64,000 nucleotides of DNA from an uncultured Actinomycetes bacterium. Its GTDB lineage: Bacteria > Actinomycetota > UBA4738 > HRBIN12. The stretch's first letter is position 1; the number at the start of each line of letters is the position of its first letter. Below are positions 12,261-64,000 of this stretch, in pieces. Position numbers and translations under genes: made by a program. The stretch covers positions 6,645-70,644 of the forward strand of contig CAWEPI010000008.1 in NCBI GenBank assembly GCA_963810945.1, given 5' to 3'. The notes under the pieces are model-generated. The model was not told the origin of the DNA and made no database searches. It was given only the letters and a program-made list of their open reading frames with translations.

Positions 12261-12394
12261 GTACGACCCCTTTCGCGGAGGGAACACACCGCTCATCGAT
12301 CCGGCAGCTGCTCGGATATGCGTCGAGTATGAACGGGGGATCGCGGCGCGACCAAGCACATCGGCGAGGCTTCGCGTAGGGATTAGGGCCTACC

Positions 12395-21239: not shown

Positions 21240-21348
21240 CCGCCATCCCCGGTCACCCTCCGGTGCTCGTGGGGGGGACTTCGGAAGGCCCAGTATACCG
21301 TTGCCTCCCCGGGACGCGGCAAAGGACACGCTACCCTGCGCGACGTCG

Positions 21349-31024: not shown

Positions 31025-31099
31025 TGGTAGCGGCGGGTGGACTCGAACCACCGACACAGCGATTATGAGCCGCTTGCTCTGCCCCTGAGCTACGCCGCC
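31025..31099 (-). tRNA. trnM: tRNA-Met (CAU), elongator type
   Basis: GGCGGCGTAGCTCAGGGGCAGAGCAAGCGGCTCATAATCGCTGTGTCGGTGGTTCGAGTCCACCCGCCGCTACCA; TACACT -10 at 31116-31121. Confidence 0.92.
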
Positions 31100-41298: not shown

Positions 41299-42234
41299 AT
41301 GGCGACCGCCGAGCACGACGGCGCGATCACGAGCGGGTCCGCCCTCACGCGGTTCATCGCCACGACGGGGCTCGCCGGGCTGGCGACGGGCATCCTCGTC
41401 GGGGGCATCGGATCCCGGGTCTTCATGCGCGTCGCGGCGGCCGCCGCTGCCGACGCCGCCCAGGGAGCGGTCACCGAGGCCGACGCGATCGTCGGCCGGA
41501 TCACGTTCGACGGGACGATGGCGATCGTGGTGTTCGTCGGCATCGGCGCGGGGATCATGGGCGCCATCCTCTATGCGATCTTCCGGCCCTGGCTCGGATG
41601 GGCCGGACGCCTCAGGGGCCTCGCCTTCGGCGTGGTGGTCTTCGCGGTGGCGAGCGCCACGTCGGACGTGCTCAACCCCGACAACTTCGACTTCGCGCTG
41701 CTCGAGAACCGCGCGCTCATCGTCTCCCTCATCGTCGCCCTGTTCCTGGGCTTCGGCCTGGTGATGGAGGCGGTGTTCACGAGGTTCGACCGCCGCCTGC
41801 CCCCCGGCGACGCCCACCATCGGAAGGCGCGCATCGTGTACGGCGCGATCACGGGGCTGGGGGTCGCGATCGCCGTTCTCATGCTCGCGCAGCAGCTCTT
41901 CACGCGCGGACCGTGTCAGTGCGATCCCCCGATCCTCGCCTCCGCGTTCGTGCTGGTCGCGGGCGCGGGCACGCTCGCGCTGTGGGCGGGCGAGACCGCG
42001 GCGAGCGCTCCGATCGTTCGCTCGCAGCCGCGCGCCTCCTGGGGATGTCGGGCCTGGTGGGCACCTGCGTGTTCGGCCTCTGGCGTGCCGGATCCGACGC
42101 GATCGCGGTCCTCACCGGCGCTACATGACGAGCCTGCCTGTCTGACAACCGAGCCTCCAACCTCCGCGCGTCGCGCTCCGTCCCGTCCTCCGGTGAGCGC
42201 TCATAGGGGTCCCGGGATACTCCGTTGGACGTAG
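41299..42234 (+). CDS. Hypothetical multi-pass membrane protein, probable frameshift near 42020
   Basis: At least 6 TM segments; 3' reading degrades after PIVRS. Confidence 0.6.
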   Translation: MATAEHDGAITSGSALTRFIATTGLAGLATGILVGGIGSRVFMRVAAAAAADAAQGAVTEADAIVGRITFDGTMAIVVFVGIGAGIMGAILYAIFRPWLGWAGRLRGLAFGVVVFAVASATSDVLNPDNFDFALLENRALIVSLIVALFLGFGLVMEAVFTRFDRRLPPGDAHHRKARIVYGAITGLGVAIAVLMLAQQLFTRGPCQCDPPILASAFVLVAGAGTLALWAGETAASAPIVRSQPRASWGCRAWWAPACSASGVPDPTRSRSSPALHDEPACLTTEPPTSARRAPSRPPVSAHRGPGILRWT

Positions 42235-42244
42235 GACCGATACG
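42230..42244. promoter_or_regulatory. CGTA-N7-TACG palindromic site
   Basis: CGTAggaccgaTACG upstream of the secreted beta-propeller gene. Confidence 0.5.
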
Positions 42245-42331
42245 CACGACGGGTGGCGCCCTGGCCCCTCGGTCCCTCTACGGTTTGCCCTGAAACGCAC
42301 CGGCCGAGTCATGCGGAGGAAGGGGAACGAC

Positions 42332-44315
42332 GTGAGGATCTTCAAGAGTGCCGTTGCAGGCATGGTGTGCCTGCTCGCGCTTGCCGTGGGGAACATGCCG
42401 CCTGCGCAGGCTTCGCTGGCTCAGCCCAAGGTGGTGTCGGACAACCCGGCCGACACGACCCCGCAGGTCCTCATCACCGACACCTCGTATGACGTACGCG
42501 CCTTCGCGCAGGTCGGCAACACCGTCTACGCCGGTGGCCGGTTCGCGCAGGTGCAGGACCCCACCGGGACGACCACGTACGCCAGGCAGAACTTCGTCGC
42601 CTTCGACGCCCAGACGGGGGTCATCTCTCCGCTCAACCTGCAGTTCGACGGGATGGTCGGCGCCATCCAGGCGACCGCCGACGGGAGCGCGCTCTTCATC
42701 GCGGGCGCCTTCTCACATGTCAACGGCATCGTCCGCCGCGGGATCATGAAGTACGACCTGGTCAACAACCGGATCGACCCGACCTTCGCGCCGACGGGGA
42801 TGCGAACCGTGGGCGATATCAAGCTCGCCAACGGCGCCGTCATCGCGGCGGGGAACTTCCCGAAGATGCTGATGGCACTGGACCCGACGACCGGCGCGGA
42901 CACCGGCGCCATCAACATCACGGTCACCGGCGTGGTCGACCCGGCCAACGAGACCAAGATCCAGTACATCGCGGTCTCCCCCGACGGCACCCGGTTGGTG
43001 GCGACGGGCAACTTCACCACGGTCAACGGCGCGAGCCGCAGACGGGCCTTCGAGCTGAACCTCGGCGCGACCGCCACGCTCAGCACCTGGCACGCCCCTC
43101 GCTTCGACGTGAACTGCGTGGCGACCAGCAGGCTGATCAGTGCGCAGGGGGTGGACTTCTCCCCCGACGGCAGCTACTTCGTGATCGTCGCCACCGGAGG
43201 CCCGACCGGTACGAACGGGATCTGCGATGCCGCGGCACGGTTCGAAACCGCGAACGTCAGCGCCAACGCCCAGCCCACCTGGATCAACTGGACCGGCGGC
43301 GACACCCTCTACAGCGTGGCGGTCACCGGACCCGGCCGTGTACGTCGGCGGCCATCAGCGCTGGCTGGACAACCCCCTCGGTCACGACTCGGCCGGTGCC
43401 GGCGCGGTCTCCCGTCCGGGCATCGGAGCCATCGATCCGGTGACCGGCAAGGCGCTCCCCTGGAATCCCACCAAGTCCCGCAATCACGGCACCATGGTCC
43501 TCTACGCCACCCCGGCCGGGCTCTGGGTCGGCAGCGACGGCACCGAGTTCGGGCACGAACCCCACAACGGGATCGGCTTCGCCCCTCTGGATCCCGGCCC
43601 CGTGCCTGACCTCGACCGGCCCAACACGGTCATCGACTCGGGCCCGTCGGGCACCGTGACCGACACGTCGGCCACCTTCACCTTCTCGGCCTCCGAGCCC
43701 TCGACGTTCCTGTGCCGCCTCGACAGCGACGCGTACGCCCCGTGCACATCGCCGACGAGCTACACGAACCTCACGGCCGCCTCGCACACCTTCCAGGTGG
43801 CCGCCATCGACGGCTCCTATAACGAGGACTTCACCCCGGCGGTGCGAACCTGGACCGTCAGTGCCACGGCCAGCAACCTGATCGGGAACTCCGGATTCGA
43901 GGTGGACACGTCCGGCTGGAAGGGCGACAACACGGCCAACGCGGTGAACCGGGTCGCGGGTGGGAACTCGGGCAGCTGGGCCGCGGAGGTCTCGAACACC
44001 GCGGCCGGTGGAAGCTGCGGGCTCGACGACAAGCCGAGCTGGGTGAGCTTCACGCAGGCCGGTCCTTACACCTCGAGCATCTGGGCCCGCTCCGACACCG
44101 CCGGGCTCACGCTCAAGCTGCGCGTGCGCGAGTACCTGGGCGGCGTGCTCCAGGGGTCGGTCGTGAAGTCGATGGCGCTGACCACGTCCTGGCAACAGGT
44201 GACGTCGACCTACACGCCGATCTCGCCCGGATCGAGCCTCGACTTCGAGGCGTTCACGAGCAACACACCCGTCGGCGTCTGCTTCCAGGCCGACGACGCA
44301 TCCATCACCCACTAA
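42332..44315 (+). CDS. Secreted beta-propeller + Ig-like + CBM4/9-like carbohydrate-binding protein, frameshifted near 43325
   Basis: Signal peptide ...GNMPPAQA; blades VYAGGRF, LFIAGAF, VYVGGH, LWVGSD; Ig-like DTVIDSGP...YTNLTAASHTFQV; NLIGNSGFE...SWAAEV (CBM4/9-like). Confidence 0.78.
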
Positions 44316-44323
44316 GCCCGTGA

Positions 44324-44355
44324 GCCGCTCCCACCCCAGCGGGGGTGGGAGCGGC
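44324..44355. terminator. GC-rich hairpin 3' of the beta-propeller gene
   Basis: 14-bp stem GCCGCTCCCACCCC / GGGGTGGGAGCGGC. Confidence 0.55.
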
Positions 44356-44397
44356 GGGGCGGGGATGGGGCCACCTTCGTTCCGGGCGGATGCCTGA

Positions 44398-44491
44398 CTC
44401 CTACGTCTGCGGGTCCGTTCGTCATGCGAACGGCGCATGCGGGCCGCCGGGGTAGGGCGCATCCTTCCGGATAGTCGGGCAGGGCGTGCAG
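44398..44491 (-). repeat. Conserved intergenic element, copy 2
   Basis: Reverse complement matches 9017-9111 in three blocks (32-nt and 18-nt identical blocks plus ACCC-N-CAGACGT-N-GGAG). Confidence 0.85.
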
Positions 44492-44582
44492 GGATGCCGC
44501 CCGATCCTCCGGGCTCGGAGCCCCCACCGGGGTCAGGTCGTCGCCCGGGAGACGGGAGTCACGCCCTGCCCGCCCATCTTCC

Positions 44583-45455
44583 CTACAGGGGCAGCGGCGT
44601 CGCGGTGGCGGCCTCGTTCGGAGCGGTGCCCGCGAGGCCGTACCTCTGCCAGATCGCCGCGCAGAACGAGTAGTGGTCGTAGCGGTGGCCGTCCTTGGTC
44701 CCGCCTGTGATCCCGGGACCGATCTCCGCCGCGTACAGCAGTTGATGCGTGCTCTCCGTGCTCTCGTCGAACGTCACGAAGACCGTGACCGACGGGTCCG
44801 CGGCGGTGATCACGCCGACGACGTGCGCCACCCACTTGTCCGCGAGGTTGATCTGGTTCGACCCGTGGTTCGTCCCGAAGTACGCCCGGCAGTCACCATG
44901 CGAGGGATAGGTGTGCGCGTTGTCGCAGTTGTTGGGAACGATGAAGCTGAACGACGGCAGCGCCTGGAGTTGCGCATCGGACGTGAGTGGGCGGTCGTTC
45001 GCCTTGCAGGACGAGTTCGCCCGGTAGGCGTAGGCGGGGTCATGCTTGTGGTCGTAGAGCTTGTCATCGCTGCCCGGGACGACGTTCGGTGAGGGGAACA
45101 CCCCGCAGTTGCCCGCCATCGACTCCTCGAGGTTCACCCAGCGCACGCCTTGGGTGTCGAACTGGTGGAACACGTTGTTCGAGACCGGCGTCGACGGGAG
45201 CTGCTCACCGGCGACCATCGCCCGATAGTCATGGGATGAGCTCTCGAAGCCGTGGTAGTTCGTGAACTGCTTGCCCCGGGCGAGCATCGCGTTCAGGAAC
45301 GGAGCGGCGCTCTTGCCGACGACGGCGCTCCGTTCGGTGTTCTCCAAGACGATGACGGCGATCTTCGGTCGTGGCGATGTCAGCGCCTGCGCCTGGACCG
45401 GCAGCAGGCCGCTCGCCACCAAGATCGCAGCTATCAGCAACGAGAACCTTCGCAC
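44583..45455 (-). CDS. Secreted phosphoesterase-family protein (acid phosphatase / phospholipase C-like)
   Basis: Signal peptide; IAVIVLEN, YDHKHDP, LPSFSFIVPNNCDNAH, VFVTFDES, YDHYS. Confidence 0.82.
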   Translation of the reverse strand: MRRFSLLIAAILVASGLLPVQAQALTSPRPKIAVIVLENTERSAVVGKSAAPFLNAMLARGKQFTNYHGFESSSHDYRAMVAGEQLPSTPVSNNVFHQFDTQGVRWVNLEESMAGNCGVFPSPNVVPGSDDKLYDHKHDPAYAYRANSSCKANDRPLTSDAQLQALPSFSFIVPNNCDNAHTYPSHGDCRAYFGTNHGSNQINLADKWVAHVVGVITAADPSVTVFVTFDESTESTHQLLYAAEIGPGITGGTKDGHRYDHYSFCAAIWQRYGLAGTAPNEAATATPLPL

Positions 45456-45500
45456 CCGTCCCCCTCGGGGGACACCCACAGTCGACGTCACTACTCCGAG

Positions 45501-46505
45501 TCAACGCGCTCTTCCTGCGCCGAGCTGGGACATGACGGCGTCGTGGAACCGCTCGAGCTGATGGAGCTCATCGCCCACCGGCCAGATGAGGACACGTTCA
45601 GCACCAGCGGCCTCGTACCGGGCGAGCTTGTCTACGCACTCGCTTGCTGAGCCCACGAGCAACCGCTCTCGGAGCTGCTCGGGTGGGCGACCGAGCGTAG
45701 GCGCGAGCACCTCGGTCACGACAGCGTCTGCGGCCGCCGCATCCTCGGTCAGGTGCAGGAACATCGTCGCGACCGCGTTGGGGAACCCCTGCGGGTCGAT
45801 CCCCTCTCGTCGCAGATGCCCGCTCAGGCGTCGGAGGGTCTCGCCGAACGCTTCCGGCGTCGTGTTGTAGCCGGAGGCCAGCCAACCGTCGGCGAGGCGT
45901 GCCACGCGCCGCAGGCCGACATCCGACCCCCAGCTCCCCAACCAGATCGGTGGTCCGCCCGGCTGGGTTGGGGCGGGGAGCAGATGCATCCCTTCCGTCG
46001 AGTAGAACGCACCCTCGAAGGGTTCGCTCGCCGGTCGCAGGAGCGCCCGAAGCGCGTGGACGGCCTCCTCGAACCTGGGCCACCGCTCCTCCCACGCGAT
46101 CCCGACCGCCCGATAGTCTCGCTCGGAAGAGCCCGGACCGACGCCGACGACGAGTTGGCCGCCCGAGAGCCGGTCGATCGCAGCCAGCGCCTTCGCGAGC
46201 AGACCCGGACCGCGCACGACGGGGAGTGCGATCGTCGTCGCGACCGTCATGGCGCCGATCGCCGGGAGTACCGAGGAGAGCGCCACGGGGCCGTCGAGCC
46301 ACGGCCGTGCGTACACGAGGTGATCGTTCGAGGTCAGCCACGTCAGGCCGATCCGGTCCGCGAGGCGTGCGTAATCGATCAGGTCGGTGATCGAGGCGGG
46401 CTCCTCGTCGCCCCAGGTCATCAACGGGAGATGCGCACCGAACTCGATCCGAGGAACCTCCGTTCCGGGTATCGGGACTCTATCCGATGTCTCCCGCACG
46501 CTCAT
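45501..46505 (-). CDS. LLM-class flavin-dependent oxidoreductase (luciferase-like)
   Basis: WLTSNDHL, LAKALAAIDRLSGG, GVGPG, PPIWLGS, VARLADGW. Confidence 0.88.
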   Translation of the reverse strand: MSVRETSDRVPIPGTEVPRIEFGAHLPLMTWGDEEPASITDLIDYARLADRIGLTWLTSNDHLVYARPWLDGPVALSSVLPAIGAMTVATTIALPVVRGPGLLAKALAAIDRLSGGQLVVGVGPGSSERDYRAVGIAWEERWPRFEEAVHALRALLRPASEPFEGAFYSTEGMHLLPAPTQPGGPPIWLGSWGSDVGLRRVARLADGWLASGYNTTPEAFGETLRRLSGHLRREGIDPQGFPNAVATMFLHLTEDAAAADAVVTEVLAPTLGRPPEQLRERLLVGSASECVDKLARYEAAGAERVLIWPVGDELHQLERFHDAVMSQLGAGRAR

Positions 46506-46633
46506 CGCTGCCTCAGCGCGGAGGGAGGAAGAGGCAAGAGCGCACCCCTCGGCGTCGTGGCTCGCGATGGGTGTCGATCTCCTGCCCCACCTGGAAGGTC
46601 CCCTCCGGGGTGGGCCCCGGGCGGCCCCGTCGA

Positions 46634-47344
46634 CTAGATCGCTTGAAGATCGGCGACGATCACACAGCGAAGGTCCGCGAATCGAACCGAGCTGTTCACG
46701 AGCCGTTCGTACGCGATACCGACCCGGTAGGCGAGGGGGTGGAAGAACAGGTACGCGGGCTTGGGCTCGATCATCTCGAGCGCGACGACACGGAACCTCG
46801 TGCGCGCCGCCAACTTGCGGAGCGTCTTGCGGTCATTGGCCCGGTACCGCGTGGGAAAGGTGTCCTCATGGGCCCTGTCGCGCCGTTCGTTGAACCAATC
46901 ATGGAACCGAGGAGGGGTGAGGGTTGCCCCGAGCGCGACGTAGTGGAAGCGGTTAGGGGTATGGAACAGGAAGTGAGCACCGGGCTTCATCACCCGGCGG
47001 ATCTCCCTGAACGTCGCGACGGGCCGGGCGAAGTGTTCCACGACGTACTTCGAGAAGACGAGGTCGAAGGTGCGATCGGCGAACGGGATGTGACAGAGGT
47101 CGGCGACGACCGCCTCATCCAGGTTCGGGTTCCCCCAGATCCCGACGTCGACGTCGACCCCGATCACCTTCTGGACGGCCTCGCGGTAGTCGTAGGGATA
47201 CGTCACACCTCGACCCGCACCGGCATCCAGGATCACCGCGTCCCTGCGCAGGTACCGCCGGATCCTCGTGTCGAACGCGAGGTGGTCGTCGACGTGGTCC
47301 GCGTAGTACCGGGCGTCGAGCCTGCGCACGGAACTCAATCCCAT
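46634..47344 (-). CDS. Class I SAM-dependent methyltransferase
   Basis: ILDAGAGRG, IPFADRTFDLVFS, EIRRVMKPGA; alternative start at 47398. Confidence 0.85.
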   Translation of the reverse strand: MGLSSVRRLDARYYADHVDDHLAFDTRIRRYLRRDAVILDAGAGRGVTYPYDYREAVQKVIGVDVDVGIWGNPNLDEAVVADLCHIPFADRTFDLVFSKYVVEHFARPVATFREIRRVMKPGAHFLFHTPNRFHYVALGATLTPPRFHDWFNERRDRAHEDTFPTRYRANDRKTLRKLAARTRFRVVALEMIEPKPAYLFFHPLAYRVGIAYERLVNSSVRFADLRCVIVADLQAI

Positions 47345-47844
47345 CGCACCGATCACGGCTGCGGTGATGAGACCTCGGACCATCAGTGGATCCGTCACGA
47401 CGTGCCCTCTCCAAGGGCCGTGCGGGCACCGATCAGCTCGAGCCTAGTCCCGCTTCGGGGCCGAGGGAAGAGGCGTCGCGTGGCGATGCCCAGCGGGCGC
47501 CGCGCCGGATCCGCGAAGACCGCAGCTCTGGTGGGATGCGAAGCCGTGGCTGAAGCCAGCTACGAATGGCTAGAGATCCTGTCAGCCGAAAGGCGGATGC
47601 GCCCGACCAGGGCTGAGTTCATCCTTTCGGCGTCGGGCAGGACGTGCGGCATTCACCCGGTCCGCCGAGGCGCCCAACGGCGAGGGGCTCTCCGGCAGGA
47701 CGGGCGCTGGCGTCCTGCCCGCCCATGCGTCCGCCGAGCACGGGATCAAGACGGCGACTGCCGTGCGCGATGACCTTGGCCCCACTACCGTGCGATTCAC
47801 CCGAGGCGACGTGCTCGAAGCATGTTCGTGTCGCCGGACCGCTG

Positions 47845-47917
47845 AGCTGGAGCGGGGAATCGAACCCCGGACCTCCTCCTTACCATGGAGGCGCTCTGCC
47901 GACTGAGCTACTCCAGC
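47845..47917 (-). tRNA. trnT: tRNA-Thr (GGU)
   Basis: GCTGGAGTAGCTCAGTCGGCAGAGCGCCTCCATGGTAAGGAGGAGGTCCGGGGTTCGATTCCCCGCTCCAGCT; TACCAT -10 at 47932-47937. Confidence 0.96.
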
Positions 47918-48008
47918 GGGAACCGGTGAGCATGGTAGACGACCACCAGGCCACCCTGTCCGCTCGCGTCAGTCTAGCCAGAGGATCGCCCCGGCGGCGG
48001 CAGCGCCA

Positions 48009-50114
48009 TCAGCCGGTCGTGTAGACGATGTGGAGGATCGTGGCGAAGGTGCCGTCGAAGGCCTCGGCCGTGCGCCTGCCCGTGCCGGTGACGATGACCA
48101 CCATGGGATTGCCGCTGACCCAGCCGGGTCGCCCGACGATCTCCTGGACGATCGACGTGAGGTCTGGCGTCCGCTGGTCGGGGCCGTGCACCTGGATCGT
48201 GGGCCACGGCGGCGGCACCCAGGCCACGCTCGCGACCGTCCGGGGGCGCGACGAGATGTTGAACGCGGTCGAGGAGAAGGTGGCCGGCTTGTCCGCCGCC
48301 TGGCCCTGGACGAGGAGGGAGACGGCTCCCGTGGTGACCTCGTCCGTCTCGAACTGGACGTAAGCGTTGCTGATCGTGGCTCCCGGCGGGATCGGCACGC
48401 TCGCGAACCGCACGCCGACCGTCTGATCGCTCCCATCGTTCACCAGCTCGAGGTCGGAGCTCGTCTTCGAGACGCTCCCGGTCGCCGACTCCTCGGCGTC
48501 GTCGGCGCTCGCGACGACGGGGATGTCGAGCATGACCGTGCCCGCGGCGTACACGGTCACGCTGACGTCGTCGCTCGCCTGCAGGCTCGAGTCGTCGGCG
48601 GTCAGACGCAGCACGTAGTTGCCGGGATCGCTGAAGCTCGCCGTCGACGTGGGGGACGTGGGATCGGCGAACGTCGCCGTGCCCGGCCCGCTCACCTGCG
48701 ACCAGCCGGCCGTCAGGGACCCAGGCGGGTTCGGGAGCCCGTCGTCGGCGACGGATCCCTGCAACGTGGCCTCACCCGGCAGCGTCACGGCCTGGTCCGG
48801 ACCGGCGTTCGCCGTGGGCGGACGGTTCTTCTTCGCGCAGTCCACGGACCCGGAGCGAAGGTCCGCGCCATTCACATCCTGGAACGACCACCCGAGGGCG
48901 TTCGCCGACCCGCCGGCCGCCGCCCCGTTCAAGGTCAGCGCGAGGAGTCCGGCCGTCTTGCCCTTGGACCATGCGACTCGCTGGCCGCTCGAGTCGCTCA
49001 CCGCGCCGCTGAGGCTGTGGCCTCCGGACCCCGCGATCAGCTCGACCATGTGCGCATCCGCGGTCCCCGCGTTGAAGTTCGCGTCCAGCGGCTTGTACTC
49101 CCCCATGGTGTGCACGTGGCCGACGAGGACGAGATCCCCTCCGTTGTTGGCGAGCAGGCTCCACATCGGCTTCTCCCCGGACTTGACCGAGCCGTCGCTG
49201 ATCGCCGGGATGTGCCAGTAACTCACGATGCACGCCGGTGCCGCGGGATCCGTGATCGCCGCCTGCACGAACTTGTACTGCGCGCTGCTCGCCGACATCG
49301 ACGCTTCCGAGTTCAGGTCCAGGAACAGGACCCCGCCGAACGTGAACTTGGAGAACAGCGGCCGTCCGTGCCAGTAGTCGATGAACGCCGCCTGGTTGGG
49401 GCCCTCGTGGTTCCCGACGGTGGGTTGGGTCACGTCGGCGGTCTTGCCCCACAACGTGCCTCCTCCCGGCACGTCCATCGACGACGCCCCGTAGTGGTTC
49501 CGGTTCTCGGTGAAGGTCCCCGTTTCGTAGACGTCTCCGAGGAACAGGAACAGCGGCGGGTCGGTCGCGGCGAGCCGGGCCGCGACGGCGTTCGAGGTGG
49601 CCTCGCCCGAAGGACCGTCCCCCACGGCCATCACGACCGGATCGTTGGGGCCGTTCCAGGCTCCCGGGAGGTAGTTGGTCCAATCGCTCGGGGAGTGTTG
49701 GAAGTCGGTCGTGTTCCCGTTGGCGAGCGTCACCGCTACGTCGACGGGCGTGGCGGAGGTCGATCCCGCCTGCACCCGAAGGGTTCCTGACCCGTCCAGG
49801 TACTTCTGTGTGGGCCAGACGAACGAGTAGTTGTTGGTCGCCGGGTAGGGACCGGTCGCCTGGATGAGCGTCGTGGCGGCACCGCCCGATGGGATCCAGG
49901 TCGAGAACACGGCGCCCGAGTTCTTGACGTTCGTGATCGTGATCGTCGTCTCGCCCACGAACGGACCGTCGGGAACCGTCACGCACACCGTGTGACTGCC
50001 CGACGAACCACAGCGGCTGACCGCACCCTCGGCCGCGGTCGGGACGAGGATCGACGCCGCGAGCGGGATCACGAGGAGGCACGAGAGCATGACGATCCGC
50101 GCCCTGGAGGCCAT
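48009..50114 (-). CDS. Secreted calcineurin-like metallophosphoesterase with PKD-like and C-terminal beta-sandwich domains
   Basis: Signal peptide; AVGD, FLGDVY, VGNHE, YWH, GHVH; NRPPTANAGPDQ...SWSQVSGPG...GNYVLRLT (PKD-like). Confidence 0.87.
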   Translation of the reverse strand: MASRARIVMLSCLLVIPLAASILVPTAAEGAVSRCGSSGSHTVCVTVPDGPFVGETTITITNVKNSGAVFSTWIPSGGAATTLIQATGPYPATNNYSFVWPTQKYLDGSGTLRVQAGSTSATPVDVAVTLANGNTTDFQHSPSDWTNYLPGAWNGPNDPVVMAVGDGPSGEATSNAVAARLAATDPPLFLFLGDVYETGTFTENRNHYGASSMDVPGGGTLWGKTADVTQPTVGNHEGPNQAAFIDYWHGRPLFSKFTFGGVLFLDLNSEASMSASSAQYKFVQAAITDPAAPACIVSYWHIPAISDGSVKSGEKPMWSLLANNGGDLVLVGHVHTMGEYKPLDANFNAGTADAHMVELIAGSGGHSLSGAVSDSSGQRVAWSKGKTAGLLALTLNGAAAGGSANALGWSFQDVNGADLRSGSVDCAKKNRPPTANAGPDQAVTLPGEATLQGSVADDGLPNPPGSLTAGWSQVSGPGTATFADPTSPTSTASFSDPGNYVLRLTADDSSLQASDDVSVTVYAAGTVMLDIPVVASADDAEESATGSVSKTSSDLELVNDGSDQTVGVRFASVPIPPGATISNAYVQFETDEVTTGAVSLLVQGQAADKPATFSSTAFNISSRPRTVASVAWVPPPWPTIQVHGPDQRTPDLTSIVQEIVGRPGWVSGNPMVVIVTGTGRRTAEAFDGTFATILHIVYTTG

Positions 50115-50255
50115 CTAGAGACCTCGCTCCCGGTCTCGTGTTGGCGAGATGTGCACAGGCAGTCCGTCCCTCGGTCACGTGGGGAAGAGCGATCGGTCGG
50201 ATACGTCGGTACGGTGAGCCAACCTAGTCCGTGGCTCTCTCCTGTCATCGACCAT

Positions 50256-50278
50256 CCGTCGTATGTCCGCTACGACGG
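50256..50278. promoter_or_regulatory. CGTA-N7-TACG palindromic site (extended)
   Basis: CCGTCGTA-tgtccgc-TACGACGG, a perfect 8-bp inverted repeat upstream of the metallophosphoesterase. Confidence 0.6.
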
Positions 50279-50327
50279 CCACCGAGCGGCGTGCGGAGGG
50301 ATGCCACGGCCGGTCAGGCCGGGATGG

Positions 50328-52600: not shown

Positions 52601-52686
52601 CGACCGGACCCTACCGGTCGCGACGCCGGAGCGGAAGGCCTGCGAGCCACAGAACCTCGCGTGGACGCGAAGACTCATGCATCCGT

Positions 52687-52701
52687 CGTAGTCGGCCTAC
52701 T
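52687..52701. promoter_or_regulatory. CGTA-N7-TACG-like site (1 mismatch) in divergent promoter region
   Basis: CGTAgtcggccTACT. Confidence 0.45.
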
Positions 52702-52882
52702 GCATCGGGCGGCCGCCCGCGCGGGGGCGGTCCGTTAGCGTTGCGTTCCGGCTTCGCTGGGAGTCCCGGACGGGGCGCGCCCGCGACCTGTCGAGTTGAG
52801 GAGGCAGACGGTGGGCAGGGGATCGCGAGCTGAGCTCGCCAACGCGGATCACGGCTCGGCCCCGGTGTCGTCCGTCCCGGAG

Positions 52883-54355
52883 ATGCCCGAGGATCAGCGG
52901 CCGCTCGACCTCGTGGTGTCGCTGTGCCTGAAGCTGGAGGCCGCCCACGTCCCCTACTGCCACTTCAAGAGCAACGAGGCGTTGGACCGTTCCCTGTCGG
53001 GCGAGAACGACCTGGATCTGTTGGTCGGGGCCGAGGGGGCGGAGCGCTTCCTCGAGGTCCTCGCGGCGCTCGGGTTCAAGGAAGGACGTCCCCCGAGGGT
53101 GCGACGGATCCCGGGGGTCGCGCAGTACTACGGTCTCGACGCCGCGACCGGCCGACTCGTGCAGGTGCACGCGCATCGACGACTCGTGTTCGGCGACGAC
53201 ACGACGAAGAACTTCGCGCTCGACATCGAGGATGCCTACATCGCCTCCGCGCCGCGCGGGCCTCTGCTCCGCGTCCCTTCACCCGAGTACGAGTACCTGC
53301 TCTTCACGCTGCGGATGGTCGTCAAGCACTGCACCCCCGACGCGATGTTCATGCTCCAGGGGCGGATGAGCTCGTCGGAGCGGCGCGAGCTGATCTGGCT
53401 GACCGACCGCGCGGACCCGGCTCGCGTCCGGGAACTCGTCCGGACGGACCTGCCGTTCATCGGGCAGGAGCTGTTCGATCGATGTGTGGCCGCCGTGCAG
53501 CCGGGGTGCGCCGCGTGGTTCCGCTGGCGCACGGCGGGGCGTCTGCACCGGGCCCTCGCGGCGCACAGGAGACGGCGGCGGCTCGCGGACGCGTCGTTGC
53601 GGGTCCTCCGCAGGGTGACCTGGGTCCTGCGCCGGCTCCTTCGAGGACGGCCCGGGAAGAGGCTCGCGGGAGGAGGTGCGCTGATCGCGGTGGTCGGCGG
53701 CGACGGCGCGGGTAAGTCGACCGCGATCTCGGATCTGTCGGGTTGGCTATCCGGTCCCTTCGACGTCGAGCGCGTGCACCTGGGCAAGCCGCCACCCGGC
53801 CTGCTGACGGTCGTGGTCAAGGGACCGATGTTCGTGCTGCGCAAGCTCGGGATGTTCCGGAGCACGCTCGTGCCCGTCCAGTCCCTCCGAGAGCAAGGGA
53901 CGTCGTTCCCCGGATACGGATACATCGTGTGGCACGTCCTCACGGCTCGAGACCGATACCGGCTCTACGCCAGAACGCGGCGATCCGTGCTGTCGGGACG
54001 GATCGTCCTGTCGGATCGATTCCCTCTGGAGAAGATCCGGACCATGGACGGTGAGAAGACGACCTGGTTGGCGGAGCGCCACGACCTGGGGTCCGTTGCT
54101 CGGTGGCTCGTCTCGTTGGAGCGCCGCTACTACGCGAACTTCATATGGCCCGACCAACTGATCGTGCTCAGGGTCGATCCCGCGATCGCGGTCGAGCGCA
54201 AGCAGCGCGAGGAGGAAGCCGGATTCGTCAGACCTCGCTCGAGCGAGGTCTGGCAGGCGGACTGGTCCGACACGCCCGCGGTCGTGGTGGATGCGGGACG
54301 ACCGCGGGAGGAGGTCCAGGCGACGATGCGGTCGATCGTCTGGTCGCAGCTGTGA
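52883..54355 (+). CDS. Fusion of a nucleotidyltransferase-fold domain and a thymidylate-kinase-like P-loop domain
   Basis: N-terminal CHFKSN...SGENDLDLLV (G-x-x-D-x-D); C-terminal IAVVGGDGAGKST, IVLSDRFP, PDQLIVLRVDPAIAVERK. Confidence 0.75.
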   Translation: MPEDQRPLDLVVSLCLKLEAAHVPYCHFKSNEALDRSLSGENDLDLLVGAEGAERFLEVLAALGFKEGRPPRVRRIPGVAQYYGLDAATGRLVQVHAHRRLVFGDDTTKNFALDIEDAYIASAPRGPLLRVPSPEYEYLLFTLRMVVKHCTPDAMFMLQGRMSSSERRELIWLTDRADPARVRELVRTDLPFIGQELFDRCVAAVQPGCAAWFRWRTAGRLHRALAAHRRRRRLADASLRVLRRVTWVLRRLLRGRPGKRLAGGGALIAVVGGDGAGKSTAISDLSGWLSGPFDVERVHLGKPPPGLLTVVVKGPMFVLRKLGMFRSTLVPVQSLREQGTSFPGYGYIVWHVLTARDRYRLYARTRRSVLSGRIVLSDRFPLEKIRTMDGEKTTWLAERHDLGSVARWLVSLERRYYANFIWPDQLIVLRVDPAIAVERKQREEEAGFVRPRSSEVWQADWSDTPAVVVDAGRPREEVQATMRSIVWSQL

Positions 54356-55086
54356 GCTTGGTCGTCGAGCTCTGCGGGCTCCCGGGGGCAGGCAAGTCAT
54401 ACCTCGCGCGCGAAGTCCTGGCGTCGACCGCCGGGGGGGACATCGACATCCGACTGCCGACCGAGGCGATCGGTCCCGACGTGCCGGGGGTCCGGAGGAT
54501 CGGGAAGAAGCTGCGGCTGGTCACTGGAGAGACGCTCCGGCAACCGGTCCTCTCGGTCAACACGATGCGCCGCATCGTCGGTTCGGGACAGGGTGGGGTG
54601 GGCCCGATCTCCTCACGCTGGGTCCAGTGGATGGCCACCCAGCGACTGATGGCCGTCGCGCGATCGACGCCCGGCGTGCACCTGTTCGACGAGGGCGTGA
54701 CGCAGGCGCTCTGGTCCTTGGGTCTCCGCGGTGATCCGTCGACGACCCTCGCCGCCCTGCGTCGGACGGTAGGGCGTTGGGAACACCCGGATCACATCGT
54801 CGTCCTCGACCTCCCGATCGAGCTGATCGACCGTCGCCTGAGCGAGCGGGCCTCGCGTCACAGCCGGCTCCAGGATGTGGCCGACGCCGAGACACGGCGG
54901 GCAGAGCTCGCGAAGGGGAAGGAGCTGCTCGAACGGCTCGCCGACTGGTGGGTCGAGGTGCTGCCGTCGGATGTGTCGGTCGCGTGGATGGGTGAGGACG
55001 CCTGCTCGGCGCGGTCGCGTGGGGGCTCGGGGCTGCTCGCCACGATCACGGGTCGGCCGTATGCCTCCGGCGTCGAGATCGGGTAG
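54352..55086 (+). CDS. Second P-loop (NMP-kinase-like) protein
   Basis: GTGA overlap; VELCGLPGAGKS, LFDEG, PDHIVVLDLPIELIDRRLSER. Confidence 0.72.
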   Translation: MSLVVELCGLPGAGKSYLAREVLASTAGGDIDIRLPTEAIGPDVPGVRRIGKKLRLVTGETLRQPVLSVNTMRRIVGSGQGGVGPISSRWVQWMATQRLMAVARSTPGVHLFDEGVTQALWSLGLRGDPSTTLAALRRTVGRWEHPDHIVVLDLPIELIDRRLSERASRHSRLQDVADAETRRAELAKGKELLERLADWWVEVLPSDVSVAWMGEDACSARSRGGSGLLATITGRPYASGVEIG

Positions 55087-55113
55087 ATCGCCTGCGCTCG
55101 ATCTCGCCCACCC

Positions 55114-55132
55114 GACGTAGGCGAGCTACGTC
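55114..55132. promoter_or_regulatory. CGTA-N7-TACG palindromic site (extended)
   Basis: GACGTAG-gcgag-CTACGTC upstream of the wzz-like gene. Confidence 0.62.
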
Positions 55133-55230
55133 ACGGACCGGGTGTCTCCCGCCGGCCCCCTAGATAGGTTTCCCCGGTGGGGGCCTGGTCGGAAGGCATC
55201 CGACTCGATCAGAGGGCTGGGGAGTAGGCC

Positions 55231-57909: not shown

Positions 57910-59524
57910 CGACGACCGCCGCCGCCGCCGCGGATCAGCCTGAGCCGTCGGGCTCCGCGCGCCTGCTCGCGTCGAATACGGCCTGGCGCCTCATCGCGTT
58001 CGGCGCCCGGACGTTCAGCGGCGTGTTGGCGACCGTGCTGCTCGCACACATGCACGGCCCGGTCGGGCTGGGGAGGTTCCAGTTCGCCCTGACGCTGACC
58101 CTCCTGCTGAGCTTCGCCGTCGCGCTCGGGCTGCCCAAGCTGCTCGTGCGGGAGCTCGCGCGGCATCCGGAGGCGATCAAGCTCCGCATCGAGTCCGCGC
58201 TCGTCGTCTCGCTCGGCGCCGGGGTCGTCGTCACGGGCCTCCTGCTCGGGGTGGGGGTGCTCTTCCACGGGGATACCTCGGTCTTCGTGCTGGCGGGCGT
58301 GGCGCTCGCGGCCGACTCGGCGATGCGGATCGTGATGGTCCCGTTCTGGGCGCTCGAGCGGATGCGCTACGAGGCGCTGTGCGTGGGCGTCCAGGAGGGC
58401 GCCTTCGTCGTGTTGACCGTCGTGGTGCTCGTGGCCGGGTTCGGCCCGGGCGGCGTGATGCTCGCGTACCTCGTGTCTCGGGTGATCGGGCTCATCACCG
58501 CGTGGACGGTCGTCGCCGTCAAGCTCCACATCCGTCTGGTCCCCCGCTGGCACGCGGGCGAGATGGCGCCGATGATGAAGCGGGCAACCCCGTTCGCCCT
58601 CGACGACGCGCTGTCGTTGGCGTACATCCGACTCGACACCGTGATCCTCGGGATCATCATCGGTGCGCACGAGGTCGGCCTCTACCAGTCGGCCGTGAAC
58701 CTGGTCCTGTACCTCAACATCATGCCCCGGATGCTGAACTTCTCGATGTATCCGCGGATGAGTCGGGCCTGGCCCGACAACGTCGCCCGAGCTCCGGCGA
58801 CTCTGCGACTCCTCGCTGATGATGCTGGGCGCGCTCGCGATGCCGATCGCCGTCGGCTCCTTCCTCCTCGCCCCGCGGATCTTCGGCGTCATGTACGGGT
58901 CCGGGTTCGACCGGGGCGTCCTGGCCTACCTGCTGGTGACGCCGCTCACCCCGATCCGCATGCTCGGCAACACGCTGGGCACGGCCCTCACGGCCGCCGA
59001 CCGCCAGACGCCGCGCACCGTCGCCGTTGGTGTCGCCGCGGGCGTGAACGTCGTCCTCAACCTGATCCTGATCCCGCAGCTGGGGGCTGTTCGGCGCCGT
59101 CGCCTCCACGATCGTCACGGAGACCGGCCTCTTCACGGCCTACGTCCTCATGCTCAGGCGGGTCATCGGTCCCTCGTGCCTCGTCTCGGCGGTCGCCATC
59201 CCCGGGATGGCATGTGTCCCGATGGCGCTCTCGATCGTGCTGCTCTTCGACGCACCGCTCGCGGTCATCCTGGTGGCGGCGGGTTGCGTCTACACCGCAT
59301 CGCTGTACGCGATCGCCGCCCTCATGACGCCGGGGAGCACGAATCCATCCGCGCTCCGTCGTGAGCGCGTTCGTGAGATGGGCTCCCATGCCGACGGCCT
59401 GATCCGGCAGGCCCGAGCCCGGTTGGGTCGGCCTACCCGCTGTACGCCGTTCGGGGCAGCCCGGCACCACATTCCGTGCCCCGACCGGCCTACACCCTTT
59501 ACAGGAGGGTGTTGCGCTCCGTAG
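57906..59524 (+). CDS. Wzx-type flippase, frameshifted near 58800 and 59100
   Basis: ASNTAW, GPVGLGRFQFA, LAYIRLDTVILG...EVGLYQSA, NVVLNLILIP. Confidence 0.87.
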
Positions 59525-59598
59525 ACTCCTCGCAGGATGTGTCTTACAGCAGATGCTGTATGACCCCAGGGCATCGGCCGGAGTGGAGGGGAGCTGGA

Positions 59599-61217
59599 TT
59601 GGCGCAGACGATGCGGATGGCGTCGGCGCGGGCCAGCCGCCACGACGGCGACGCGGTGTTGCGTGAGATGGCTCACGAGTTCGGGTCCGAACCCGACGTC
59701 GAGGCCGTGATACGCGCGTCATCCCACTGGATCGGCGCGGCTCTGGGTTGGGAGTTGGACGCCATGCGATTCGCGCTTCCCGACGCGCGCGGTGACCTCC
59801 GAGCCGTGCTCAGCACGGGCGAGGAGCTCATCGAGGATGTCTCCCTCCGGAGGGCACGCCTGGCGTTCGACCGGAAGGCAACGAGACGGCGCCCTGCTCG
59901 GACGCGCCGGGGGTCGCAGGCACTCACCCTCCCCCTCGTCGCGCGAGGGGTCGCCGTCGGCGTGCTCGACGTCGTGGCGCCGTCGCATGTCATCGATGAG
60001 GGATGGGAGACGCTCGATGCGGTGGTCAGCCGGATCGCGATCGCCCTCGCGAACGTCGCTGCGCGGAGTTCGATCGAGCGTGGCCGCGAGGCGATGCGGA
60101 AGGCCGCGCTCCTGGGAGCCCGGGTGGCGCACGCGCCCACGCGCGAGGAGGCGATCCGCGAGATCGTCCGCGCACTCCATCAGGACTTCGGCCTTCGGGC
60201 GGCCGCATGGCTCGTCGAGGAGGGCGGGCCGCTCCTCGTGTCCACGAGGGGTCTCGGGTCGCAGGCGACGGGATCGATTGCGCGCGATCGCCGCGTCGGG
60301 ACCGGGCGATCTGTCCACGCGGCTCGCGTCGACGTTCGCGTCGGTCACCGCCTCGGACGACCCCGATGTGATCGATGCCGGCGGGACCATCGTGGTCATG
60401 GATGCGATACCAGGATCCGCAGCTGCGCGAGGCCATCGTGCTCGCTCAGGCGGTCTCCGGTCAGCTCCTCTCGTGGTCGTTCTCGCTCGAGCAGCTGCAG
60501 AAGCGCAACGTCTCCCTCGATACCGCGTTGACGCTGACCGCGCACGAGCTGCGGGGCCCGCTGCTGGCCGCCAAGGCGACGATCGACGGGATGCTGCAGG
60601 AGGCGGGACGTGGGGGCGCCGACCGTGCACGCCTCCGGGACTCGCGACGCCAGCTCGAGGAACTCGCCAGCATCGTGGATCCCTTGCTTCGTTGGTCGGT
60701 CTCCGGCGACGGCCTGCGACGACGCGGGGGGGATCTCGTCGGCCTGGTCGTCAAGGCGATCGACTCCGTCGTCCTCGAGACGGGTGAGGACCGCGTGGTG
60801 CTCGAGGTGCCCCTGGATCCCTCGAGCGTGCCGATGTCACGTCGTCACCTCTCGTTCGCGATCGCGAACCTGATCCGCAACGCGATCGCGTTCTCTCCAC
60901 CCGACTCGGTCGTCTCGGTTCGCGTGGCGTTCGATGACGCGACGGCGACGGTCAGCGTCCACAACGAAGGCATCGGGGTGGCCGAGGAGGAAGTCGAGTC
61001 GATCTTCGAGCCGTTCTCCCGCGGTCGCTCCGGGCGATCGGCGCGTGCCGGCAACGGTCTCGGTCTCTTCGTCGTCCAGCGGGTCGCCGACTCACACGGC
61101 GGCCGGGTGTGGGTGAAGTCGGGTGAGAAGGGAACGACCTTCCATCTCACGCTTCCACTCCGCACGGCCGCGCCGGCCGAAAGGGGTGTTCCGCATCAAC
61201 GCGCTGATCGTGGATGA
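59599..61217 (+). CDS. GAF-like sensor plus HisKA histidine kinase, frameshifted
   Basis: LPLVARGVAVGVL (GAF-like); AHELRGPL (H box), NLIRNA (N), NEGIG, FEPFSRG (F), GNGLGL (G2); no TM seen. Confidence 0.82.
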
Positions 61218-61877
61218 CCACAGGCTGTTCGCCGAGGCGATCAAACCCGCCCTGGAGCGGCTCGGCATGGATGTCGCGCTCGCCACCACGGGACAGGAGG
61301 CCTTGAGAGATCGTCGCCACATCGAAGGTCGACATCGCCCTCGTCGACCTCGGGCTCCCCGACATGAAGGGGATCGACGTGGGAGCGCGGATCGTCGACA
61401 TGCAACCCGAAGACGACCGTGCTCGCACTTACGGCGATCGATGATCAGCGGTTCGTTGCCCCCGTGCTCCAGGCCGGATTCAGCGGCTACCTCACGAAGG
61501 GCCTGCGGATCACAGGCCTGGTGAGTGCCATCACGGCGGCTCTTGAAGGCCAGCTCGTGACCCCCGGGCTTTCCACCGGCTCGAACGGCGCCTCCAGGAC
61601 GCGGACCCAACAGCACGTCGAGCTGCTCGCCTCGACGCTCACTGCCCGGGAGCGTGAGGTGCTCGCGCACCTCGCCCAAGGCGAAACGGGCCAGGAGATC
61701 GCACGCGGGATGTCGATCAGCGTCCATACCGTGCGAACCCACGTGCAGAGCATCCTCGCCAAGCTGCAGGTGCACTCCCGACTCGAGGCGGCGATGTTCG
61801 CCGTGCGGCACGACCTCGTTCCGAGCTCGCCTGAGGAGCCCGACGCTCGCCCTCGTTCGAACAGGCGGGCCGTCTGA
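61186..61877 (+). CDS. NarL/LuxR response regulator, frameshifted
   Basis: LIVDDHRLF, ALVDLGLPD, GYLTK, LTAREREVL...TVRTHVQSILAKLQVHSR. Confidence 0.87.
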
Positions 61878-61891
61878 GTCCGGCTCCCACG

Positions 61892-61916
61892 CACGACGTA
61901 GCGGCTCTACGTCGTG
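61892..61916. promoter_or_regulatory. CGTA-N7-TACG palindromic site (extended)
   Basis: CACGACGTAG-cggct-CTACGTCGTG, a perfect 10-bp inverted repeat upstream of the second regulator. Confidence 0.65.
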
Positions 61917-61973
61917 TACCGCGTGTGGCACCCGTTGCGGCCACCTATCGTCGCCACCGGAAAGAGGGGAACC

Positions 61974-62669
61974 ATGGCTGAAGAACGCGAGCCGATCCGC
62001 GTGCTGCTCGCAGACGGGCACGCCTTGTTCCGCGAAGCGGTGACGAGTGTGCTCCAGGGCGAGAGCGACATCATCGTCGTCGGTGACGCATCCGACGGCT
62101 CCGCGGCGATCGCCGAAGTCGAGCGGACTCGTCCGGATTGCGTCTTCGTCGACGACCAGCCCGGATCGATCGACGGCGTCGAGGCGACGCGGAGGATCAA
62201 GGACCGCCTCCCCGAGTGCGACGTGATCCTCCTGGCGTCCGACGCGGATGAGGCGACGCTCGTCGCGTCGATCGAAGCGGGCGCGAGCGGCTACCTCACG
62301 AAGGACCGTCCGGTCGTGGAACTCATCAACGCGGTGCGCACCGTCCGTCGAGGTGAGGTGGTCGTTCCCCCTCAGATGTTGCGGTCGCTGCTTTCGGGTC
62401 TGATCCGGCGACGCAAGGAACAGGATGAGGCGATGCACCGCGTGTCTCGCCTCACCCGCCGTGAGCTGGAGGTCCTCGCGCTGCTCGCCGATGGCGCCGG
62501 CAACGAGGGGATCGCGGAGAGCCTCTTCATCAGCCCGCAGACGGCGCGGACGCACGTCCAGAACCTGATCGCGAAGCTGGGACTGCATTCGAGGCTCGAG
62601 GCGGCGATGTTCGTCGCGCGCAACGGCATGCTTCGAGAGCTCGTGGAGCTCACCCCCCAGAGTGGCTAG
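61974..62669 (+). CDS. NarL/LuxR response regulator
   Basis: VLLADGH, CVFVDD, GYLTK, LTRRELEVL...TARTHVQNLIAKLGLHSR. Confidence 0.92.
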   Translation: MAEEREPIRVLLADGHALFREAVTSVLQGESDIIVVGDASDGSAAIAEVERTRPDCVFVDDQPGSIDGVEATRRIKDRLPECDVILLASDADEATLVASIEAGASGYLTKDRPVVELINAVRTVRRGEVVVPPQMLRSLLSGLIRRRKEQDEAMHRVSRLTRRELEVLALLADGAGNEGIAESLFISPQTARTHVQNLIAKLGLHSRLEAAMFVARNGMLRELVELTPQSG

Positions 62670-63855
62670 CGGCATGTCCGCTCTGCACGATCGGCCACAG
62701 GTGATCCATGTCGCGACCCGCTACCTGCGCGGGGGCTCTGAAGCGCGGATCCAGGACATCGTCCGAGCGCTGCCGGACGTCGATCACCATCTGATCGTCG
62801 GGGCCGAGTCCGACGTGGATCTCGCCCGCGAACGACTCGATCCGGCGTCGCTCACGGTCGTTCGATCGCTCGTGCGGGAGCCGAACCCGCGGTCGGACGT
62901 CTCAGCCTTCCTACGGCTGGTTTCGCTGTTCCGCAGCACGCCCCATCACCTGTTGGTCACGCATCAATCGAAGGCGGGGATCCTCGGCCGTTCGGCCGGA
63001 CGGTGGGTGGGTCGGGCCTCCATCGTCCACTCGCTGTCGATGGCGAGCTTCGGTCCCGGCTACCCACGTTGGCAGGACTACCTGTTCCGCACCTTGGAGG
63101 CGCGACTCGCTCGAGCCACCGATGGGTTCACGGTGGTCGGGGCCGACCTGGCGGGCCGCTACACGAGGATCGGCGTGGCGCCCCACAAGTTCCACGTGGT
63201 CCGGTCCGATGCCGGGCTCTTCCCGAGGCCCGCTGCGGTCGACCGGATCGAGGCTCGCGAGGTGACGGGCCTGCCGTTGGACAGGCCGATCGTCCTGTAC
63301 CTGGGCAGTCTCGAGCCGCGGAAGAACGTGCTGGATCTCGTCGATCTGCTCGACCGTTCGGTCCGCGCTCGGCGTTCTCACGGGCGGCCCTTCCTGGTGG
63401 TGGCCGGGCAAGGGCCCCTCGAAGAGCCCTTGAGGGAATCGCTACGCCGGCGCGGCCTCGCAGGCGATTCCGTCTTGCTGGGGTTCGTCGAACGACCGGC
63501 ATCCCTCGTCGCCGCAGCGGACGCGCTCATCCTCCTCAGCCGGGTGGAGGGTCTTCCCCAGGTGCTGGTGCAGGCCGCCGCCGCGGGGACGCCGTTCGTC
63601 TCCTACGAGGTCGACGGAGCGCGCGAACTCCTGGAGCTCGGCGCGGTGGGGGCCGTCGTTCCCACGGGTGACCTTCCGGCCGCCGCGGACGCCCTCGGCC
63701 GGGTCCTGTCATCGGATCGCCCCGCCGCGACCCTCGATCTCGCCTCATGGTCACCCGACGCGATCGCCGAGGCCTACCGGCGGGTCCTGCACCCACTCGT
63801 GCATGCCTCCCTCGCCGGGTCGGAGATCAGACGCAACCCCGTCCATCCTGCGTAG
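62662..63855 (+). CDS. Glycosyltransferase family 4 (GT-B)
   Basis: VTHQSKAG, LYLGSLEPRKN, SRVEGLPQVLVQA (E-x7-E motif with the second Glu as Gln). Confidence 0.9.
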   Translation: MASGMSALHDRPQVIHVATRYLRGGSEARIQDIVRALPDVDHHLIVGAESDVDLARERLDPASLTVVRSLVREPNPRSDVSAFLRLVSLFRSTPHHLLVTHQSKAGILGRSAGRWVGRASIVHSLSMASFGPGYPRWQDYLFRTLEARLARATDGFTVVGADLAGRYTRIGVAPHKFHVVRSDAGLFPRPAAVDRIEAREVTGLPLDRPIVLYLGSLEPRKNVLDLVDLLDRSVRARRSHGRPFLVVAGQGPLEEPLRESLRRRGLAGDSVLLGFVERPASLVAAADALILLSRVEGLPQVLVQAAAAGTPFVSYEVDGARELLELGAVGAVVPTGDLPAAADALGRVLSSDRPAATLDLASWSPDAIAEAYRRVLHPLVHASLAGSEIRRNPVHPA

Positions 63856-63918
63856 ACGTCCTACGGTCGCCGGGGGTCAGGCCCGCCCCCCGAACTCCCT
63901 ACGCGTAGGCCATTTACG
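63851..63918. promoter_or_regulatory. Two tandem CGTA-N7-TACG sites
   Basis: CGTAgacgtccTACG (63851-63865) and CGTAggccattTACG (63904-63918), probably upstream of a gene beyond the window. Confidence 0.6.
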
Positions 63919-64000
63919 GCGATCCACGCATGTCCCGGCGTTGGTCCGAGGAGACACTCGGCCGCACATCGTGGCCCGGGGCGATCCGATGTTCTCCGGT

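Follow-up and report, generated by a model that had tools for sequence, protein, structure and literature searches.

A short palindrome, CGTAG-N5-CTACG, recurs between the genes of a polysaccharide cluster in a 64-kb stretch of DNA (the window, always meaning the whole stretch; about 70% G+C) from an uncultured Actinomycetes bacterium (GenBank assembly GCA_963810945.1, contig CAWEPI010000008.1, positions 6,645 to 70,644). As judged by sequence comparison, the palindrome is almost certainly the binding site of the cluster's regulator, because it stands at a fixed distance upstream of the promoters of the cluster and of a response regulator in many uncultured soil actinobacteria. The cluster is of the Wzx/Wzy type and has its own two-component module, with a histidine kinase and two NarL-type response regulators designated RR1 and RR2. 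The palindrome is most likely the operator of a cluster-situated transcription factor, namely a dimer of these local regulators, a reading to which a probability of roughly 0.7 is given. What is new here is this fixed-distance architecture of the promoters, which about 40 lineages share. Related loci that were fetched for comparison carry L numbers (L001 and so on).

The core of the palindrome, CGTA-N7-TACG, has seven perfect matches in the window (20076, 42230, 50260, 55116, 61897, 63851 and 63904); 100 dinucleotide-preserving shuffles average 0.09 and never reach two. Six of the seven are intergenic and all six fall within 42.2–63.9 kb, while positions 1–42 kb of the window hold no intergenic perfect core. 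An earlier note on this DNA had listed the same six intergenic cores, all of which are present, together with perfect arms of 10 bp at 61897, 8 bp at 50260 and 7 bp at 55116, which hold up as well; its hand estimate of about 0.5 chance cores per 64 kb is too high in the light of the shuffles. The seventh core, at 20076, lies inside a nusG-like coding sequence without promoter geometry and is treated as chance or coding, as are three matches in or beside a LigB-type open reading frame (L019 3584, L020 9757 and L021 5948). The NusG homologue in question (19585–20832, minus strand), which holds the only coding-region core of the window, has an N-terminal extension of about 240 amino acids.

The spacing of the arms is specific. 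With CGTA/TACG arms, N7 gives seven matches in the window and any other spacing from N0 to N15 gives none or one; over 570 kb of window and related loci together, N7 gives 84 matches and the other spacings 0–9. That only N7 is enriched removes the worry that TA-containing words are merely commoner between genes. Cores with one mismatch are not enriched as a class (15 in the window, including the seven perfect ones, against 9.6 expected), so mismatched sites were accepted only with support from an orthologue and a −10 hexamer. The earlier note had proposed a genome-wide comparison of intergenic with coding DNA. Counted over the loci that reach 3 kb, the 65 unique sites include 51 that lie wholly between genes and seven that cross a gene end, in DNA of which an approximate gene finder leaves only about 23% without a called gene. 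The complete palindrome is 15 bp long and sits in a wider consensus, cGaCGTAG-N5-CTACGtCg. Its half-site centres are 10 bp apart, a distance that fits a dimer of helix-turn-helix proteins because it equals one helical turn. Invariant arms, a free centre, this half-site distance and a fixed promoter position together point to a dimeric DNA-binding protein.

The promoter position emerges from 74 unique perfect sites in the window and the related loci, for which −10 hexamers of the form TANNNT were counted at offsets 1–55 in both directions. Such a hexamer starts 34–36 nt past the palindrome at 51 of the 74 sites (37 at offset 35, 13 at 36 and one at 34), against no more than two sites at any other offset in either direction. 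A composite scan of the window alone returns five matches at offset 34–36 (42230, 50260, 52687, 55116 and 61897) and none at control offsets. The profile of oriented sites also has a conserved G-T-G starting 11 nt past the palindrome, with 1.7–2.2 bits at the T. Since this GTG is fixed relative to the palindrome while its spacer to the −10 is either 17 or 18 nt, its behaviour is that of a −35 (TTG...) that is weak but normally spaced. The constant layout would thus read palindrome, 11 nt, weak −35 (GTG...), 17–18 nt spacer, TANNNT. If the −10 hexamer is numbered −12 to −7, the centre of the palindrome lies at −54/−55 of the predicted start, some two helical turns before the middle of the −35. 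The site thus appears to lie upstream of, and clear of, a weak −35 at fixed phase, as in a class I-like promoter. This would be a place for an activator that recruits RNA polymerase and not for a blocking repressor, and it is from this position that we infer activation. These putative promoters escape an automated promoter scan, whose rule demands a stronger −35. Soil metatranscriptome contigs that are 90–99% alike cover the RR1, RR2 and GT4 regions (61300–63300), some of them crossing the palindrome, and point to transcription of this stretch in relatives; they are undirected, break near the palindrome and may include DNA carry-over, so that no start site can be read from them. Most oriented sites have, in addition, a CTCaTsC element 7–13 nt upstream of the palindrome (for example at 52674–52680 and 55103–55109 of the window), which keeps a fixed distance on the promoter-distal side and is not symmetric with the −35 side.

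The predicted operators of the window are as follows.

42230–42244, plus strand: operator palindrome CGTAGGACCGATACG, upstream of the beta-propeller/CBM gene (ATG 42311), with a TACGGT −10 at 42279–42284.
50260–50274, minus strand: operator palindrome that would serve the metallophosphoesterase/PKD gene (48009–50114, minus strand).
52687–52701, plus strand: one-mismatch operator CGTAGTCGGCCTACT, between two divergent genes, that for the epimerase (minus strand) and that for a protein of 519 amino acids (52796–54355, plus strand).
55116–55130, plus strand: operator after the stop of the AAA_33 gene (55086) and before the membrane-cluster gene at about 55231/55481–56551, which the Wzy and flippase genes follow.
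61897–61911, plus strand: operator with 10-bp arms, upstream of RR2, with GTG at 61923–61925, a TATCGT −10 at 61946–61951 and ATG at 61974.
63851–63865, plus strand: distal operator of a pair, overlapping the GT4 stop codon (whose TAG lies in the core) and lacking a −10 in this orientation.
63904–63918, plus strand: proximal operator of the pair, with a conserved GACACT −10-like hexamer at 63953–63958.

The overlap of 63851 with the GT4 stop codon had been remarked upon before and is borne out; the core at 42230 similarly takes in the stop codon of the open reading frame upstream, the TAG again being part of the core. At 50260 the promoter elements lie on the minus strand, with TAGGTT as −10 at 50221–50226 and a −35-like ATGACA at about 50244–50249, and orthologous Metallophos/CBM96 genes carry a palindrome in L019 and L021. 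The 55116 site is followed by a GTG at 55142–55144 and a TAGGTT −10 at 55165–55170, and is kept at L001 3150, L002 3081 and L014 4615. The two sites at the end of the window are 53 bp apart from centre to centre, and the pair recurs with a spacing of 52–53 bp in L001, L002, L019 and L021. In L002, L019 and L021 the distal site bears a −10 for a divergent CBM96/Metallophos gene. The GACACT at offset 35 from the proximal site keeps A2 and T6 of a −10, and the gene behind it, which is cut by the window end, is a priming sugar transferase in L001. The paired sites, five helical turns apart, would thus guard the gene for the priming sugar transferase.

The two one-mismatch cores reported before, 52687 and 59432, both exist as sequence and fared differently. 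The former, with a TAGCGT −10 at 52736–52741 and the CTCATGC element already cited at 52674–52680, has a one-mismatch counterpart in L001 and a perfect one in L002 (position 652) with the same −10 spacing, and is accepted as real because it is perfect in L002 with the same promoter geometry. The latter lacks its left arm in the closest relatives, L001 and L002, and no −10 stands at offset 34–36 from it. It was therefore rejected as a site, and with it goes the histidine kinase as a member of the regulon as first proposed. The kinase operon has instead a consensus-like sigma-70 promoter, TTTACA-18-TAGACT, at 59498–59527, so that autoregulation of the kinase through the palindrome is unsupported in this organism. 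This promoter has its −35 within the loop of another palindrome, ACACCCT/AGGGTGT, with perfect 7-bp arms (block 59492–59527). The block is conserved in L001, nearly so in L002 and not in distant loci, and might serve some other factor as its operator.

Conservation was followed through 84 loci with relatives of RR2, four relevant ones from reference genomes and 80 from metagenomes (the query being an alignment of five orthologues). The window DNA is about 90% identical to a contig of an uncultured Actinomycetes metagenome-assembled genome (MAG) of the Microflora Danica series (L001) and about 80% identical to a second (L002), and near-identical sequence is present in soil, rhizosphere, sediment, peat and wetland metagenomes. 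Footprints of the window against L001 and L002 show the cores at 52687, 55116, 61897, 63851 and 63904 preserved amid diverging flanks and 5-nt centres. Further afield, a perfect palindrome lies 75–155 nt upstream of RR2 in about 40 loci, counted among those with enough upstream DNA, and does so from 98% down to 41% identity of the RR2 protein, with diverging flanking DNA; the chance of one perfect core per 250 nt is about 3.5e-4. Additional RR2 loci carry variants with one mismatch, two mismatches or N8. The palindrome accompanies RR2 even where no RR1 adjoins it (L053, L057 and L062). In L056 (1–3396), three RR2-like genes occupy 3.4 kb, and a separate palindrome, with a −10 hexamer at offset 35, precedes each of two of them. 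Neither an RR1 upstream nor a CGTA palindrome is present in one clade of orphan RR2-like genes (L037–L043, L046, L048, L052, L054, L055 and L071). These genes have a highly conserved leader of their own, about 190 nt long and about 200 nt upstream of the regulator gene (…ccgagtcaa…ctgtcagttgcc…ctatgggacagtgtttaccactgac…), which might represent either another group of operators or a leader RNA.

The genes that follow the palindrome in other lineages are of the same kinds as those in the window. They encode a priming sugar transferase, GT4 glycosyltransferases, an epimerase and a Wzz/tyrosine-kinase protein (BY-kinase), as well as large secreted proteins with Metallophos, CBM96, Ig and fn3 domains, a PKD/NHL protein and an AAA protein like that of 52796–54355. 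RR2 itself is a target across lineages, and the kinase or RR1 gene is one in a few. That the targets elsewhere match those of the window suggests that the beta-propeller and metallophosphoesterase genes at 42–50 kb share a regulon with the biosynthetic genes.

The two-component module comprises the candidates for the binding protein and their presumed partner.

61974–62669, plus strand: RR2, a NarL/VraR-type response regulator (REC and GerE helix-turn-helix domains) with helix ISPQTARTHVQN; candidate binder and regulated target.
61186–61877, plus strand: RR1, a paralogous NarL-type response regulator, frameshifted in the assembly, with helix NTVRTHVQS; candidate binder.
59476–61217, plus strand: histidine kinase with a GAF domain, in two frames in the window; presumed phosphodonor.

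RR2 matches Response_reg (1e-20) and GerE (4e-18) in Pfam and aligns over its full length to VraR (E 7e-39), NarL (4e-29) and DevR (4e-28). Its receiver departs from the canonical motif, and its recognition helix is identical in every orthologue recovered, an identity that is partly due to the search pattern and therefore not independent. RR1, which stands directly behind the kinase gene, has a canonical receiver (DLGLPDMxG), and its REC and GerE architecture is seen in L002. The two regulators share the recognition-helix core R-T-H-V-Q, which we take, going by NarL–DNA structures, to be the base-contacting positions, and an attempt to tell RR1 from RR2 by the helix failed for this reason. NarL-type regulators usually pair with HisKA_3 kinases, whereas the kinase here combines a GAF sensor with an H box of the HELRGPL type (AHELRGPL, HisKA type, within 60400–60500); GAF and HATPase_c are its only Pfam matches. 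The genes for the kinase, RR1 and the beta-propeller protein (42311–44315) are each split over two frames. As the contigs of relatives differ by a single base at 61413 and 61961, these splits are probably homopolymer indel errors of long-read assembly and not marks of pseudogenes. The earlier note had the histidine kinase and the regulators at 59.6–62.7 kb control polysaccharide, kinase and secreted-enzyme genes together, and named a third regulator as a further candidate for binding. What survives is a predicted cluster-specific operator that conservation, fixed geometry and targets link to the local NarL-type module; the kinase site falls away, as does the third regulator, at 28888, which has no site nearby and is not implicated.

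In the circuit that these features suggest, a dimer of RR1, of RR2 or of both would bind the palindrome, with the adjacent GAF kinase as presumed phosphodonor. The likeliest order runs from the kinase to phosphorylated RR1 and from there to RR2 and the biosynthetic and secreted-enzyme genes, because RR2 has a palindrome promoter and the kinase–RR1 operon has a consensus-like promoter of its own. RR2 might then provide positive feedback or amplification, or take over from RR1. A more elaborate version, which is offered tentatively and as the lesser chance, is a three-part promoter (CTCaTsC, palindrome and weak −35/−10) under a dual-regulator relay, in which homo- and heterodimers of RR1 and RR2 would set a threshold or a memory. 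Here the GAF kinase and the canonical RR1, expressed from their own strong promoter, would switch on RR2, with its divergent receiver and the same DNA-reading helix, and CTCaTsC would be where a second dimer or RNA polymerase makes contact. Were it true, polysaccharide production in widespread uncultured soil actinobacteria would have a threshold or memory.

Several points weigh against control by RR1/RR2 dimers from a class I-like position. The −10 and −35 assignments are read from sequence patterns, which makes the start positions putative in turn, and −54/−55 differs from the textbook class I position. The CTCaTsC element may be the site of some other protein. Autoregulation is not universal, since no site precedes the gene itself in many RR2 orthologues whose recognition helix is identical. 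Finally, RR2 orthology was the criterion for choosing the loci, which makes the link between motif and RR2 one-sided, genomes without RR2 being outside the comparison.

Some of these points would also suit a real promoter-linked operator that is bound by a transcription factor encoded elsewhere, with RR2 as a mere conserved member of the regulon. This is unlikely, although it has the adjoining CTCaTsC as a hint of a second factor and several RR2 orthologues that combine an identical helix with the lack of an upstream site, and binding of the palindrome by RR1 or RR2 is itself predicted from sequence. Against it, only RR2, and usually RR1, travel with the motif across very different neighbourhoods, the half-site geometry suits helix-turn-helix dimers of the GerE type, and the sites are confined to the cluster around the response-regulator genes, the first 42 kb having no intergenic one.

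It is very improbable that the palindromes are hairpins in RNA or DNA, whether terminators, processing sites or insulators. Several do lie just past the stop of a co-directional gene (42230, 55116, 61897 and 63851), and the one at 61897 is strong (−16.9 kcal/mol, z = −3.5). However, energies range from −4.4 to −16.9 kcal/mol and three of the seven sites (52687, 63851 and 63904) fold no better than shuffles, the minimum-energy fold at 63851 and 63904 leaving the arms unused. No site is followed by a T tract or called terminator-like, and Rfam matches no structured RNA at the sites, only three tRNAs reaching the gathering score in the window. Moreover, arm changes are not compensated: positions 4 and 10 form 33 Watson–Crick pairs against 35 expected if they were independent, and positions 5 and 9 pair below chance. 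The loop length is fixed, the arm sequence is itself invariant beyond what pairing would require, the distance to the −10 is constant, and the sites at 52687 and in L002, L003 and L019 stand in divergent promoter regions. Uncompensated arm changes and uneven hairpin stability argue for a protein operator and not for an RNA hairpin, a terminator or a repetitive extragenic palindromic (REP) element. Least credible of all is a REP-like or miniature mobile repeat that is spread genome-wide and frequent here by chance, since, for all that the palindrome is short, intergenic and present in several copies, and that the scans covered the window and related loci only, its copies share a core of only 15–23 bp without repeat-unit flanks, occupy orthologous positions in genomes of 80–90% nucleotide identity and precede orthologous genes in much remoter ones, keep a fixed geometry to the −35 and −10, and have no intergenic representative in the first 42 kb.

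The preferred reading, an operator for the local NarL-type regulators, is in keeping with known systems. Proteins of the VraR/LiaR, NarL and DevR (DosR) type bind, as dimers, to inverted repeats whose half-sites are separated by roughly a helical turn, and they frequently control their own genes; RR2, with its REC and GerE domains, matches such proteins over its full length. A regulator of this architecture, an inverted repeat of fixed spacing and co-occurrence with the regulator gene (one-sided, as noted above) together point to an operator of the NarL/FixJ type. By contrast, the NarL box of E. coli consists of TACYYMT heptamers in a 7-2-7 arrangement, and the palindrome does not conform to it: its half-site is CGTAG, its centre 5–7 nt long, and its GTA/TAC face inward and not outward. 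To our knowledge, the palindrome is equally unlike the operators of DosR and LiaR/VraR or any other actinobacterial operator. Exopolysaccharide genes are activated through an upstream palindromic box by other regulators with a LuxR-type helix-turn-helix, namely RcsB (with RcsA) at cps operons and VpsT in Vibrio. Both are among the structural relatives of RR2, and as in those systems the regulator gene belongs to the same circuit; here, however, the phylum and the box sequence are different, no RcsA-like auxiliary is seen, and several separate promoters in one cluster each have their own site at one fixed distance. BldM and WhiI of Streptomyces are two paralogous NarL-family regulators that serve shared targets as homo- and heterodimers (PMC4125116). 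RR1 and RR2 resemble that pair in their common helix core and in the non-canonical receiver of RR2, but are adjacent and behind a kinase gene, whereas BldM and WhiI are orphan and unlinked. A literature search returned nothing relevant on a NarL-type regulator of actinobacterial exopolysaccharide or on a CGTAG/CTACG palindrome.

The outcome is a testable regulon, with operator, promoter geometry and targets, for an uncharacterised two-component system that is predicted to control a gene cluster for an extracellular and perhaps sulfated polysaccharide. The lineage, one of uncultured actinobacteria, recurs in metagenomes from soil, rhizosphere, peat, wetland and sediment. With so sharp a motif, the regulon can be annotated automatically in MAGs, and the promoters could serve as parts for heterologous expression of such clusters. 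The mechanism itself is conventional and the understanding of response-regulator control is unchanged; this is a solid but ordinary regulon prediction of a known type.

Gene identities at 40–64 kb were taken from Pfam annotation. The order begins with a methyltransferase, the beta-propeller/CBM protein, a phosphoesterase, a luciferase-like oxidoreductase, a second methyltransferase and a tRNA, and continues with the following genes.

48009–50114, minus strand: metallophosphoesterase with a PKD domain (Pfam).
Between the metallophosphoesterase gene and that for the 519-amino-acid protein, minus strand: UDP-glucose dehydrogenase and epimerase.
52796–54355, plus strand: putative protein of 519 amino acids.
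54352–55086: AAA_33 kinase-like protein (Pfam).
After the AAA_33 gene, in order: membrane-cluster protein, Wzy-like polymerase, Wzx-type flippase, GAF histidine kinase, RR1, RR2 and GT4 glycosyltransferase.

The gene behind the 55116 site had been named wzz, an assignment that was not confirmed, as it has no Pfam match. In L001 the GT4 gene is followed by that for a priming sugar transferase (Bac_transf) and then by one for a sulfotransferase (the two together at 12024–14332); with the AAA_33 kinase-like gene, this sulfotransferase suggests that the polysaccharide may be sulfated. Upstream of the cluster, the window encodes a second Wzy-like protein (21301–22971), an RTX-repeat protein (26735–27976) and the third NarL-type regulator (28888–29625), and a scan of the window found no palindrome near any of the three. 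The tRNA genes are all on the minus strand (21166–21239, 31028–31099 and 47845–47917), and the last of them, at 47.8 kb, lies within the motif-bearing region, between the methyltransferase and metallophosphoesterase genes.

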